Position numbers and translations under genes: made by a program. Shown piece after piece: positions 60,014-62,160 of a DNA stretch of 64,000 bases (its first letter is position 1; every line of letters begins with the position of its first letter). The notes under the pieces were generated by a model. The model saw only the letters and a list, made by a program, of their open reading frames with translations. It did no database searches and was not told the origin of the DNA. The stretch covers positions 288,001 to 352,000 of the forward strand of contig CAWISW010000001.1 in the NCBI GenBank assembly GCA_963838925.1, given 5' to 3'. The stretch is from an uncultured Nitrososphaerota archaeon (GTDB lineage: Archaea > Thermoproteota > Nitrososphaeria > Nitrososphaerales > Gagatemarchaeaceae).

Positions 60014-60116
60014 TCCGGTAAGGCGTGAGCCAAACTTGCAAATCTTTTACACCTATTTAGCTTTTGTGGAGAATTAGGCCTTCTGAGGTTCAGGTTTGCA
60101 TCCGTTTTCTCCTTGG

Positions 60117-60330
60117 GAGAATCGACGGCCAGTGCAGGTTCTGTTAACTCTTCAGCTCAGGCAGTGGGCGAGTCAACTTGCTGGCATCGACTCGGAGGAT
60201 TAGGGTCTTCCTCGTCCCGTTCCCCGTCACTGCTTCACCTGCCAGCCCTTTCTCCTCCTCTATCGTGTGCGAGCGACTTTCCTCCTCTCGCCTCTCCGAC
60301 CGAGGAGAAAGGGAACGGTCGAACCTGGAC
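60117..60330 (-). ncRNA. Putative omegaRNA/reRNA overlapping the tnpB 3' end (boundaries approximate)
   Basis: Expected position for a TnpB guide RNA. GCTGGCA/TGCCAGC stem at 60180-60186 and 60240-60246. The low-complexity C-terminal tail of TnpB is encoded here. Confidence 0.55.
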
Positions 60331-61458
60331 CGCCCCCTCTCGGATAGGTTCAGGGCCGCGTTCACGTCCCTGTAAATCCACTCCTTGCACTTCTGGCACC
60401 AGAGCATCCTCGCGTGCGCGACATCACCCCTTGCAGGATTGTGGAGCTTCTCCCCACACGCCGAGCACGTCGAGGATGACCCGTAGGTCTCAGACTTTGT
60501 CAGCAGAACCACAGTCAGGCCCTTCCATGCTGCCTTGTATTCGAGCATCTTCTTCGCCTTCCGGTGGGGCCACGAGTTGAGCCTGAACCTGTAGCCTGCA
60601 CCTTGCCCGTTCCCTCTTTGGTACAACCTCCTGATGTCGGTCAGGTCCTCGATAGCAAGCGCAGCCCCTTGCCTCGCCGCGTCATCGACGATATAGTTCG
60701 TGGCCGCGTGGAGGATCTGGTCGCTCCTGTGACGGGCCCTACTCCAGTACTTGCGGGCGAGATTCCTTCGTATCCTGACGTCGTTCCTCTTGAACGATCC
60801 GACTATCTCCCTGGTCGTCTGCCTCATCTTGACCAACTTCGTCATCTCGACCAAGGTGACGTTTTCTTTATCACCGAACGTGATGTTCTTCTCGTTCCTG
60901 TCCAAGCCATAGACTCTTCTTATCTCAACAGGTTCGATGTGCTTCGAATAGCAGAGCGATAGCGAGTCGGGAGTTATGGTGAGGCTCCTGACCTTCCCCT
61001 CTGAGAGCTTCCTGACCGCATATTGATTGAGCTTTATGTCGAAATACTTGTCACGTCTCAGCGGGATGAAGAGCCTCCCCTTCATTGTGATGAAGAAACC
61101 CGAGATGATACATGAAACCGGTCTCAAAGGCCTGGGATGGGCTGCTTTGATTCCTCGCTTCTCGCCTTTGTTGCGACTTTGGACGACTGCGCAGGCGCGC
61201 GTTATCGACGCGACCTTGTAACAAGAAGGAAACTCGGTGTTCCTGAGCGTCCGGTAGAATCCCTTCATCCCCTTGCGGTTCTCAATCCCATGTGCTTCGG
61301 CGTAGTTGACTGCGTCATAGGTCGCTGTTAGACATTCGTTAAGCAGACCACGTAGCTGCTCGCTGGAATGCGATTGGGTGACACACTTTGTTGCCCGCAA
61401 CAATCATCTGGGATGCAATCGTATAAACGCGCCCATGAGCCGAAGAGTTACCAGAGCC
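60137..61458 (-). mobile_element. Non-autonomous TnpB-only element with terminal inverted repeats and 8-bp TSD
   Basis: TIRs at 60137-60158 and 61437-61458 (19/22 identical). Direct repeat CCAGTGCA at 60129-60136 and 61459-61466. No transposase gene inside. Confidence 0.85.
60144..61403 (-). CDS. tnpB: TnpB RNA-guided nuclease
   Basis: RuvC-I GLDRN, RuvC-II AIEDL, Zn finger CSAC...CQKC, RuvC-III RDVNAALN. Confidence 0.92.
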   Translation of the reverse strand: MLRATKCVTQSHSSEQLRGLLNECLTATYDAVNYAEAHGIENRKGMKGFYRTLRNTEFPSCYKVASITRACAVVQSRNKGEKRGIKAAHPRPLRPVSCIISGFFITMKGRLFIPLRRDKYFDIKLNQYAVRKLSEGKVRSLTITPDSLSLCYSKHIEPVEIRRVYGLDRNEKNITFGDKENVTLVEMTKLVKMRQTTREIVGSFKRNDVRIRRNLARKYWSRARHRSDQILHAATNYIVDDAARQGAALAIEDLTDIRRLYQRGNGQGAGYRFRLNSWPHRKAKKMLEYKAAWKGLTVVLLTKSETYGSSSTCSACGEKLHNPARGDVAHARMLWCQKCKEWIYRDVNAALNLSERGRSRFDRSLSPRSERREEESRSHTIEEEKGLAGEAVTGNGTRKTLILRVDASKLTRPLPELKS

Positions 61459-61530
61459 CCAGTGCATCAAGCTTTTATATCGAGCCCGGCACTTTGTCGC
61501 CAGGTCGCGCTCGTGGGCTCAGAGTTGGTC

Positions 61531-62160
61531 ATGTTCGAGAACGCCCTCCAGTTCATCGGGGCGTTCGTGGCCTTTTCCATCGCCCTCGTCGCATACAAGG
61601 GTGTGCGCGAGACGAGCAGCTCCTCGATGCTCAGGCTCGCGGCTGCCTTCGTCTTCCTCGGGGCCGGGTTCGTCCTCCAGGGGCTGGACAGCGTCGGCGC
61701 GTTCGGCAGCATCCCTGGGCTCTCGACCTCCATCGACACGATAATGGTCGCCGGCATGTTCCTACAGACGGTGGGCTACTTCTTCTTGGCATTCTCCCAC
61801 GTCCTGGACGTGGTCGTCTCAAGGCGGCTGGGGCCGCTCCTCGTGCTCCTCCCGATACTCGCGGTAGGCCAGACCAGCGTGGAGACCGTCCTCCGCAGCC
61901 TGTCCTTCTACTTCATACTGTACGGGGTGCTAGAGACGGCGCTCTCGTATACAAAGTCGAGGAACCCCAACACGCTCTTCATCGCGACCGGGCTGGGCAT
62001 GCTCGCCGCCGGGTGGTGGGTCTCGCTCGCGGCACCCGACCTCGTATTGTTAACATTGTTGCAGCTTTTGATGAGAGAAGTTGGACTGATTGCGCTATTC
62101 GTCCCAGTCTTGAGATTCTCGTTCAGGAAGCCAGGAGACTTGTTGAATGCCCCAGTATAG
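61531..62160 (+). CDS. Multi-TM hypothetical membrane protein
   Basis: About 7 hydrophobic segments; TATA-like ttttatat at about 61473; overlaps the downstream wHTH gene. Confidence 0.7.
   Translation: MFENALQFIGAFVAFSIALVAYKGVRETSSSSMLRLAAAFVFLGAGFVLQGLDSVGAFGSIPGLSTSIDTIMVAGMFLQTVGYFFLAFSHVLDVVVSRRLGPLLVLLPILAVGQTSVETVLRSLSFYFILYGVLETALSYTKSRNPNTLFIATGLGMLAAGWWVSLAAPDLVLLTLLQLLMREVGLIALFVPVLRFSFRKPGDLLNAPV

Follow-up and report, generated by a model that had tools for sequence, protein, structure and literature searches.

A tnpB-bearing transposon with IS6-type ends at an archaeal promoter edge, and a possible homing role for its T-rich flank

The window (the whole 64,000-nucleotide stretch of DNA that was analysed) holds an element, copy A, whose sole cargo is a tnpB gene and a putative guide-RNA scaffold. 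Its limits were set from the ends of paralogue alignments, terminal inverted repeats (TIRs), a target-site duplication (TSD) and element-free sites in relatives. The element, its ends and its coding frame are as follows.

60137..61458, minus strand: copy A, whole element, 1322 bp
60137..60159, no strand assigned: tnpB-distal (3') TIR arm, from comparison of the inverted ends; contains the 3' half of scaffold helix 7
61436..61458, no strand assigned: tnpB-proximal (5') TIR arm, from the same comparison; begins GGCTCTGGTAAC on the tnpB strand
60129..60136, no strand assigned: TSD copy at the tnpB 3' end; would form the first 8 nt of a read-through guide
61459..61466, no strand assigned: TSD copy at the tnpB 5' end, from the sequence
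60144..61403, minus strand: tnpB frame, 419 aa, predicted TTG start; stop codon within the 3' TIR arm
61422..61427, minus strand: candidate tnpB promoter read from the sequence, internal TTTATA, 32-37 nt inside the 5' end

The inverted ends are 23 nt each and 87% complementary. The 8-mer CCAGTGCA at 60129-60136 and 61459-61466 touches both element tips with an 8/8 match (chance at a fixed place, 1.5e-5), and the minus (tnpB) strand reads ...AAAAGC TTGA TGCACTGG, then the element, then TGCACTGG CCGTCGATTCTC. Two paralogues from this genome (77-78% identity) align exactly to the limits of copy A (60136/60137 to 61458), each with its own perfect 8-bp duplication, giving perfect TSDs in 3/3 genomic copies; TIR/TSD scoring recovered 8-bp TSDs in many copies from relatives as well. 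Nine genomes of the same genus have the flanks adjacent, with a single copy of the duplicated 8-mer region and the element absent. Four DNA read runs yielded short contigs only, among which neither a junction nor an element-free allele appeared. The TIR/TSD anatomy described in the earlier note is thus real, and the empty site that it reconstructed by removing the element and one TSD, with the tnpB-strand flanks it gave, is correct. The same observations already contradict a reading of copy A as a canonical IS200/IS605 (IS1341-type) element moved by a Y1 TnpA, with a pair of similar subterminal hairpins mistaken for the TIR and a repeat that arose by chance. Although tnpB-only elements are usually of the IS200/IS605 kind according to passages of PMC4810608 and PMC3119063, the ends here are truly inverted and not hairpins, the perfect 8-bp TSDs recur in all three genomic copies and many relatives, the empty sites hold the whole flank including one TSD copy, and a search of the genome (87% complete) for Y1_Tnp (PF01797) gave 0 matches. 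This reading was given practically no credence.

The encoded protein retains an intact RuvC D/E/D triad (GLDRN, AIEDL and YRDVNAALNL) and CxxC...CxxC pairs, and matches Pfam PF07282 at 55 bits (cut-off 26.3), corresponding to the zinc-finger/TNB domain between RuvC-II and RuvC-III. NCBIfam NF040570 (guided_TnpB) scored 75.1 bits against a curated cut-off of 100, and solved TnpB/Cas12f chains matched weakly (best E = 1e-6) over the RuvC/zinc-finger part. Judged by these scores, the protein is a divergent member of the family with a distant relationship only to characterised TnpBs. Among aligned frames of >300 aa the triad is kept in 16/17, the exception (L131) being frameshifted at RuvC-III; tnpB is broken in several copies, with open frames of 156, 233 and 295 aa. 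An A/T-rich box resembling the internal TTTATA of copy A is present in other copies. Internally deleted tnpB-type copies of 347, 468 and 764 bp have good TSDs.

Only 20 of the 97 unique scored tnpB-type copies passed the TIR/TSD filter, and four further copies brought the validated tnpB-type set to n = 24. L036 and L067, obtained by boundary refinement with ±3 shifts, were likely false positives and were left out; L029, filter-passing but doubtful, was kept in every count. Matching TSDs are missing from many tnpB-type copies, which fits intramolecular replicative events and equally fits decay or mislocated ends.

The 3' end of tnpB overlaps the putative scaffold, beyond which a guide may be templated.

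60137..60340, minus strand: putative omegaRNA scaffold of 204 nt or more; its 5' limit is an alignment anchor
60117..60136, minus strand: putative guide template of 20 nt, the TSD and the next 12 nt of flank; placed from the scaffold end, length by analogy

RNAalifold of 36 copies gave 40 pairs, 12 of them with compensatory changes; 97.2% of cells were paired, versus 32-49% in controls with slid partners, and the covariation score was 0.241 versus <=0.085 in the slid controls. The 3' strand of the last scaffold stem (helix 7) is at 60143-60149, and 60137-60142 (AGAACC, tnpB strand) make up an unpaired tail before the putative guide. Many relatives had matched only up to position ~1290, from which came the idea of a scaffold ending ~32 nt before the element end, with the TIR in guide position. 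This was rejected because all relatives end ...ACAGAACC, a conserved terminal motif, after a variable hairpin, and the segment pairs with the scaffold. No Rfam family matched copy A at threshold; a match to the C/D-box family sR43 (19.6 bits, gathering score 45) was taken as chance. The conserved, covarying structure runs into the tnpB-distal TIR, in agreement with the earlier proposal that the TIR doubles as the 3' end of the omegaRNA scaffold. Since the structured RNA ends there, a guide read through past the tnpB-distal end would consist of the TSD plus flank. That such a transcript continues as the sequence after TTGA, as had been pointed out, is true, but any target-site duplication gives this automatically.

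The copy A 3' arm reads GGTTCTGTT and the 5' arm GGCTCTGGT, with one change in TGT. These ends (GG tip, cTGTt (CTGT) motif, short TIRs, 8-bp duplication) match the IS6/IS26 signature, for which GG tips, CTGT and 8-bp repeats are given in passages of PMC8477213, PMC10581047 and PMC7986276. The same genome carries 4 DDE_Tnp_IS240 genes, one of them within an autonomous element (G000 C2:509147-511129; 1983 bp) with GGTTCTGTTCAA ends, an 8/8 TSD and a PF13610 match of 61.9 bits. The 383-aa IS6-like transposase (G000 C2:509162-510310) occurs in 60/97 genomes of the taxonomic family (f1), and 20 of the 30 autonomous IS6-like loci in relatives have 8/8 TSDs; tnpB is absent from all 20 of these. The TIRs of the autonomous loci match the copy A arms at up to 18/20 positions (the 5' arm, 61436-61458, is 18/20 against L261). 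As partner transposases, ISL3 (no match in 5 genomes) and IS1595 (two copies in one relative, TIRs unrelated) were rejected, and a genome self-BLAST showed no high-identity multicopy IS. The earlier analogy with ISDra2 (IS200/IS605, TTGAT) does not carry over to mobility, the ends being IS6-type and the genome search having found no Y1 transposase.

As tnpB is the only long frame in copy A and no IS240-type DDE transposase lies inside, copy A is, on its sequence, at most a non-autonomous IS6-type derivative and not an IS6 insertion sequence proper. It most likely moves in trans, by means of an IS6-like DDE transposase whose gene lies at another place in the genome. That TnpB, an RNase-H-fold RuvC nuclease, is itself the transposase of this TIR/TSD family would agree with its being the sole frame in the element and with the absence of a transposase gene from all tnpB-type copies. 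Autonomous elements with near-identical ends and the same TSD length, however, encode an IS240-type DDE transposase without tnpB; a conventional mover is therefore sufficient, and TnpB as transposase was considered highly improbable.

The flank beyond the 5' end of tnpB belongs to a divergently transcribed neighbour.

61467..61472, plus strand: six bases between TSD and TATA box, TCAAGC; in the neighbouring promoter they take the BRE position, and they are conserved at the 9 empty sites
61473..61480, plus strand: TTTTATAT, TATA box of the divergent host gene; little or no variation among 9 element-free relatives
61531..62160, plus strand: host gene for a membrane protein that weakly matches DUF7521; its promoter abuts the element, and its ATG and upstream region are conserved in relatives

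Copy A sits at the upstream (probably BRE) edge of its neighbour's promoter, and TTGA (minus strand, 61467-61470, inside the six-base spacer) is therefore promoter sequence; it may also be a nuclease recognition motif. Among the 24 validated tnpB-type copies TTGA occupies -4..-1 in 2, copy A and the deletion derivative L292. The recurrent feature is instead a TATA-like box at -13 to -7 plus T at -3 and -2 (A/T at -12, 24/24; T at -9, 20/24; T at -3, 15/24; T at -2, 16/24), and a divergent frame starts 22-53 nt from the TSD in 14/20 tnpB-type copies. Absence of a shared motif beside the TSDs of further copies would have spoken against the earlier note; the tabulated flanks (n = 24) do contain one, of which TTGA as such is not the shared part but a piece of a 13-nt BRE/TATA-like promoter flank already found in empty sites. 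For the latter reason the TATA-like flank was rejected as a part of the element. A genome-wide promoter profile from a noisy ORF set, meant as a check on whether the bases next to the TSD are BRE, contained TTTAWA in 18/693 upstream regions and only a weak A/T signal at -5/-4.

The same flank adjoins autonomous IS6-like elements without tnpB, at the same distance to the TATA box. T at -3 occurs in 15/24 tnpB-type versus 11/16 autonomous copies, the bases adjoining the TSD are only loosely conserved, and motif sharpness at -4..-1 shows no clear difference between the two groups; A against G at base -1 (11/24 tnpB-type versus 2/16 autonomous, p = 0.04) is too weak to use. Because the T-rich bases next to the TSD are the same beside tnpB-free elements, they need no TnpB explanation, and since those elements insert at the same TATA distance, the insertion site is most likely picked by the transposase or the promoter complex. 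These comparisons bear on the earlier suggestion of an ISDra2-like TTGA(T) TAM next to the TSD, with homing logic built on that motif. TTGA at -4..-1 does occur in copy A, L292 and the autonomous L242, but its rarity in the tnpB-type set, the position of the fifth base in copy A (within the variable TSD), the pre-existence of the motif as conserved promoter sequence in empty sites and the distance of the protein from characterised TnpBs (best structure match, E = 1e-6) all argue against it, and it was judged improbable.

The side on which the TATA-like flank lies was recorded relative to tnpB. Among the 20 filter-passing tnpB elements it lies on the tnpB 5' side in 17, on the 3' side in 1 and on neither in 2, and in the four further tnpB-type copies it is always on the 5' side, for a total of 21:1. 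In the autonomous elements, where orientation was defined by the transposase gene only, the flank is divided 8 / 8 by side, with 1 both and 3 none. For these counts the binomial p is 1e-5 and the Fisher p 0.002. Among 12 good copies of a wider, A/T-rich class sample the side signal is weak (5' side, 4; 3' side, 1; both, 2; none, 5). The difference between 21:1 and 8:8 favours a role of TnpB for the promoter-side flank, and this bias of the tnpB elements is the best support for the homing proposed below.

The flank might alternatively matter only to the transposase or promoter complex, TnpB then using another TAM or target, or lying idle. The bias would in that case come from elsewhere, for instance from a transpososome steered by the inequality of the TIR arms, or from selection against guide-RNA transcripts that run on into the host gene. 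Autonomous elements without tnpB do have the same flank motif, degeneration in tnpB elements is visibly greater in the 5' arms than in the RNA-constrained 3' arms, and several copies have a broken tnpB (frames as above). However, the guide position leaves only the empty site as matching DNA, with the promoter flank as its 5' context; tnpB and scaffold are conserved with catalytic residues intact, and autonomous elements tolerate both orientations. A flank without any function for TnpB was therefore regarded as rather unlikely, though a serious competitor.

The preferred explanation, which was considered probable with modest confidence, is that copy A is a non-autonomous IS6/IS26-type transposon, moved in trans and placed at a promoter edge, whose TnpB homes to empty sites by means of a T-rich flank TAM. 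An IS6-like DDE transposase would act in trans, make the 8-bp duplication and set the element down at the BRE edge of a host promoter, six bases upstream of its TATA box. Scaffold read-through beyond the tnpB-distal end would give a guide consisting of the duplication and the 3' flank. The only other DNA matching that guide would be the element-free copy of the site, where the match is preceded by the T-rich promoter flank; this flank would supply the TAM, with a loose consensus of about T-T-T/G-A and not TTGAT. TnpB would cut empty sites, and repair would copy the element in. Bacterial IS6 members move by replicative cointegration without excision, as stated in passages of PMC8477213 and PMC7986276, so that the usual rationale of restoring the element after excision is weakened.

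A bolder proposal, held tentatively and open to considerable doubt, is that the host core promoter has two uses for an archaeal IS6-type DDE lineage whose sole cargo is TnpB and its guide RNA. The position six bases upstream of the TATA box would serve as the insertion landmark (possibly via bound TFB/TBP), and the T-rich BRE side as the TAM for cutting element-free alleles, while the first third of the guide would be the TSD. Homing competence would then be confined to insertions in which tnpB faces away from the promoter, which would explain the 21:1 bias. If true, this dual use would couple RNA-guided homing to a replicative, TSD-making transposon and to integration directed by the promoter complex in archaea.

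TnpB has been understood through IS200/IS605 and IS607 elements, in which restorative homing is useful because excision leaves no scar, and in which the TAM is the target site of the transposase. In copy A the TnpB/guide-RNA module is carried by a transposon that has inverted ends, duplicates 8 variable bases and is probably moved replicatively. An active TnpB would here have to take the duplication as guide sequence and find its TAM outside it; this geometry, unlike that of IS605 or Fanzor, makes it possible to test directly what TnpB does for a DDE transposon. Compact TnpB/scaffold pairs, with natural guides and flanks in large number, are a further resource of the family. The fixed placement of tnpB-type and autonomous IS6-like elements at the BRE/TATA edge points to safe-haven targeting in archaea, of which the passages drawn on from the IS6 reviews contain no description.

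Among known systems, IS200/IS605 elements are reportedly the setting of TnpB homing, with TTGAT as the TAM of ISDra2 (Karvelis 2021; Meers 2023). Copy A resembles them in that DNA past the tnpB-distal end would provide the guide, the TAM should lie in the flank of the opposite end, and the transposase target motif would double as TAM. It differs in having no Y1 transposase found in its 87% complete genome, inverted ends, a likely mover that is replicative and not excising, and an 8-bp duplication, because of which the guide would start with duplicated bases and the filled site would keep an 8-nt match. The IS200/IS605 homing model is summarised in a passage of PMC13565253.

IS6/IS26 elements (IS26, IS257/IS431) and MITEs share with copy A the GG tips, CTGT at positions 5-8, short inverted ends and 8-bp duplication described in passages of PMC7986276, PMC6807381 and the Tnp26 binding study PMC8477213; the autonomous relatives here encode a DDE_Tnp_IS240 transposase, and gutted MITE-like derivatives exist. 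Copy A, in contrast, lacks a transposase, carries tnpB and a guide-RNA scaffold, and is inserted at the upstream edge of an archaeal promoter, as are its relatives, of which the autonomous ones, unlike typical IS6/IS26, are 2-3.5 kb long with SWIM/zinc-finger N-termini and passengers. In their available passages, the IS6 reviews PMC7986276 and PMC6807381 name only two MITEs and one passenger-carrying member, and on target specificity those of PMC7986276 hold no discussion of preference, only two reference-list titles. A literature search for TnpB, the IS6 family and archaea returned no paper linking them and no printed report of TnpB in IS6-type elements.

DDE-associated TnpB lineages (PNAS 2023, PMC10691335; PMC13565253) resemble copy A in carrying tnpB inside inverted terminal repeats, its 3' end <250 bp from the transposon end. 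Passages of both sources describe solo tnpB copies bounded by the ends of transposase-bearing relatives, implying mobilisation in trans, and name IS630, ISL2, IS1031, tyrosine recombinases and Cas1 as partners, IS6 not being among those named there; PMC10691335, in the part available, counts six DDE branches of TnpB. Fanzor in eukaryotic DDE transposons is likewise an RNA-guided nuclease riding in TIR/TSD transposons, with a short fixed TSD (TA, TTAA) read as part of the TAM and the 3' TSD in the scaffold (PMC13565253, in part). The copy A TSD, by contrast, has 8 bases of variable sequence, and it is the guide that would have to include it. Ty3 inserts at Pol III start sites and Tf1 upstream of Pol II promoters. 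Copy A and its relatives resemble both in being inserted at a fixed place beside the transcription initiation complex, sparing coding sequence; Ty3 and Tf1 are eukaryotic retroelements, whereas the element described here is a DDE transposon beside an archaeal BRE/TATA.

The tnpB-bearing element of the window (copy A) and its only long open reading frame are placed as follows:

60137-61458, tnpB on the minus strand: tnpB-bearing element (copy A), 1322 bp
61403..60144, minus strand: tnpB, the only long ORF of copy A, encoding a divergent TnpB of 419 aa

Copy A has an archaeal TFB gene on one side and a small gene for a membrane protein on the other. Its termini are 23-nt inverted repeats (TIRs; 87% complementary), and the 8-mer CCAGTGCA stands on either side. 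Two further full copies in the source genome are 77-78% identical to copy A, and homology of both to the window breaks off exactly at 60136/60137 and 61458. A perfect 8-bp duplication flanks each of the three (TGCACTGG, CCTTCTTA and TTTCGGCC, tnpB strand), and a genome-wide search returned no TIR ends of this type beyond these copies. In 9 same-genus genomes the element is absent, the TFB-side and membrane-gene-side flanks adjoin and the duplicated region is single. Since this region is single-copy in element-free relatives and every copy has its own duplication, the repeat is a true target-site duplication. Paralogue boundaries, duplications and empty sites thus confirm the anatomy described in the earlier note, and the 9 element-free genomes show its reconstructed empty site to be correct. 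The protein scored 55 bits against Pfam PF07282 and 75 bits against NCBIfam guided_TnpB (model cut-off, 100 bits); solved TnpB/Cas12f chains matched it weakly, over the RuvC/zinc-finger part. The source genome carries 8 TnpB-like genes in total, 3 of them more distant relatives with a common ...AGAACC 3' terminus. Just upstream of the promoter-side flank of one paralogous copy, ~650 bp upstream of its tnpB, lies another TnpB-like gene (contig C1:360524-360715, outside the window); it is unrelated and belongs to the canonical GVDLG...DRDLNAA type.

The TIRs of the tnpB element share the IS6/IS26 signature of GG tips, cTGTt and 8-bp repeats, and transposase binding at IS6/IS26 ends needs TGT at positions 6-8 (excerpts of PMC8477213, PMC10581047 and PMC7986276). 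The source genome (87% complete) gave no match to Y1, ISL3 or IS1595 transposases and carried 4 DDE_Tnp_IS240 genes. One of these, inside an element of 1983 bp that has GGTTCTGTTCAA ends and is flanked by a perfect 8-bp duplication (contig C2:509147-511129; L245:1354-3336), encodes a 383-aa transposase with SWIM and IS240 DDE domains. A small ribbon-helix-helix-like ORF and a 139-aa membrane-protein ORF are possible passengers of this element. The transposase was present in 60/97 genomes of the source genome's family, often in many copies. Among 30 autonomous loci, 20 combined an 8/8 duplication with same-type TIRs (identity at most 18/20 with the 5' arm of copy A and 17/20 with the 3' arm); the other 10, weak candidates only, were dropped. 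None of the 20 contained tnpB or scaffold-like DNA, and tnpB-type copies shortened by internal deletion to 347, 468 and 764 bp had good duplications. Because of the IS6-type ends, the autonomous relatives and the deleted copies, the tnpB element is best read, on sequence grounds, as a non-autonomous IS6-type element mobilised in trans.

Other insertions were also recorded. An IS6-like element of 2806 bp in the source genome (C2:410327-413132; L243:132-2937) has 23-nt TIRs (GATTCTGTTAAC...), an 8-bp duplication, a TTAAA box ~5 nt from it, passenger ORFs and a 302-aa IS240-type transposase with an N-terminal zinc ribbon; a 1893-bp relative in G015 (L242) has TTGA adjoining its duplication. At L271 and L272 (genomes G044 and G088), only the 8-bp duplication separates an autonomous IS6-like element from the end of another element; the resulting arrays are reminiscent of IS26 targeted insertion beside an existing copy. 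The copy L017/L040 carries an additional solo 5' end ~325 bp upstream, with the perfect duplication at the outer end and not the inner, and is a nested or composite insertion. Two identical, inverted 1314-bp IS1595-family copies with unrelated TIRs (L237 and L238; G027 C1:~1214245-1215558 and ~1243356-1244669) have exchanged their flanking 7-8-mers, an arrangement suggesting that recombination or intramolecular transposition has inverted the ~29 kb that separates the two.

Bases next to the duplication were tabulated across tnpB-type copies drawn from the 97 family genomes, public genome contigs and metagenome contigs. Scaffold-core matches (221) were reduced by 17 without the terminal motif and 82 on DNA too short for both ends; the remaining 122 (97 unique) were scored and filtered for TIR ≥10/16 and duplication ≥6/8. 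Twenty passed, and 4 copies added by targeted retrieval gave 24 validated copies. The 77 unique copies failing the filter were left out of counts; these may be decayed, have a mislocated 5' end or reflect events separating both duplication copies. The earlier note had proposed TTGA(T) as a target-adjacent motif (TAM), by analogy with the TTGAT of ISDra2. TTGA at -4..-1 (counted outward from the duplication on the tnpB-5' side) occurred in 2/24 validated copies, so this specific analogy is not supported, although the tabulation did uncover a recurrent T-rich, TATA-like flank. This flank, T-W-T-W-T-A-A at -13..-7, was confined to the tnpB-5' side (A/T at -12 in 24/24, T at -9 in 20/24, A at -8 in 19/24), with T at -3 in 15/24, T at -2 in 16/24 and A at -1 in 11/24. 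Neither the duplicated bases nor the 3' flank gave a sequence signal in validated copies.

The flank motif is read as the BRE and TATA box of a divergent host gene. At copy A it is TCAAGC-TTTTATAT (plus strand), kept in 9/9 empty sites upstream of the membrane-protein gene's conserved ATG. By mechanical ORF calls, a long ORF directed away from the element begins 22-53 nt from the duplication in 14/20 copies (2 of the other 6 had <140 nt of flank), a spacing compatible with a TATA box followed by a short leader or none. A promoter consensus built from the source genome to place -4..-1 as BRE was too noisy. The TFB gene downstream has its own AAAGC-TAAATAG box (window 60056-60064, minus strand), conserved in relatives; copy A therefore has a promoter on either side, the two back to back, and read-through of its guide RNA would head toward the TFB promoter.

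Autonomous IS6-like elements also lie ~6 bases from a TATA-like box, with the same bases adjoining the duplication (T at -3 in 11/16). Since these tnpB-free elements share both distance and flank, site choice is most likely the work of the insertion machinery or the promoter complex and not of TnpB. Orientation was scored in all classes by one promoter-side criterion.

Side of the promoter-like flank by element class (at least 6/7 A/T in a window starting 4-8 nt beyond the duplication)
tnpB elements, first set (n=20): 5' side only 17; 3' side only 1; both 0; none 2
tnpB elements, added copies (n=4): 5' side only 4; 3' side only 0; both 0; none 0
Autonomous IS6-like (n=20; side relative to the transposase gene): 5' side only 8; 3' side only 8; both 1; none 3
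tnpB elements from the wider class sample, restricted to good copies (n=12; mostly A/T-rich genomes, in which this criterion has poor discriminating power): 5' side only 4; 3' side only 1; both 2; none 5

The wider class tally (37/301 genomes) includes three unpublished genomes, whose loci were left out. One-sided tnpB cases had the flank on the 5' side in 21/22 (binomial p = 1e-5), and the 21:1 split differed from the 8:8 of autonomous elements (Fisher p = 0.002). The tnpB insertions are separate events, because their duplications and flanks differ.

The 200 nt that follow the RuvC-III motif were conserved far above the rest of the element. All relatives terminate in ...ACAGAACC, 15-48 nt past the conserved block, with an optional hairpin between. 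RNAalifold on 36 diverse copies predicted 40 pairs, 12 with compensatory changes; 97.2% of cells pair versus 32-49% with slid partners, and the covariation score was 0.241, a value that 0/500 shuffles reached, versus at most 0.085. The last predicted helix joins an upstream GTTGACT to the inner part of the 3' TIR arm, leaving the terminal AGAACC single-stranded. Covariation and this use of the TIR arm therefore support the part of the earlier interpretation in which the TIR doubles as the 3' end of the omegaRNA scaffold; as a whole, that interpretation has partial support. In the modelled structure, a read-through guide would start with the duplication. A sub-threshold Rfam match inside the scaffold (C/D-box sRNA sR43, window 60155-60217, minus strand; 19.6 bits, gathering score 45) is probably chance.

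Beyond the anatomy, we infer the following sequence of steps. The IS6-like transposase would place the element at the BRE edge of a promoter, producing the 8-bp duplication; tnpB would probably be expressed from its own internal TTTATA, and scaffold transcription would cross the 3' TIR and reach the duplication and flank. The guide would find its match in another context only at the empty allele, preceded there by the T-rich promoter flank. If that flank were the TAM, homing would be possible only for insertions with tnpB directed away from the promoter, and the orientation bias of tnpB elements would follow. The filled site would retain the TAM and an 8-nt match, and self-avoidance would, as the earlier note points out, depend on longer pairing, a requirement known for other TnpBs. 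This homing geometry is plausible, with the orientation bias as one indirect support. Against it, -4..-1 is loosely conserved, no sharper than beside tnpB-free elements, and bacterial IS6 members are described as not excising (PMC8477213 and PMC7986276, in excerpt).

A full-text literature search found no link of TnpB to the 'IS6 family' in archaea. The excerpted passages of the IS6 review mention two MITEs and one member that carries a passenger, and by term search they have 'target specificity' in reference titles only (PMC7986276). A 2026 review lists ISL2, IS630, IS1031, tyrosine recombinases and Cas1 as tnpB partners, with IS6 unnamed in that section (PMC13565253, section 6.2). Inverted-repeat elements carrying tnpB, tied to DDE transposases and mobilised in trans, are already published (PMC10691335, section 9); copy A likewise has its tnpB within inverted repeats and a putative in-trans mover, and its ends are of IS6 type.
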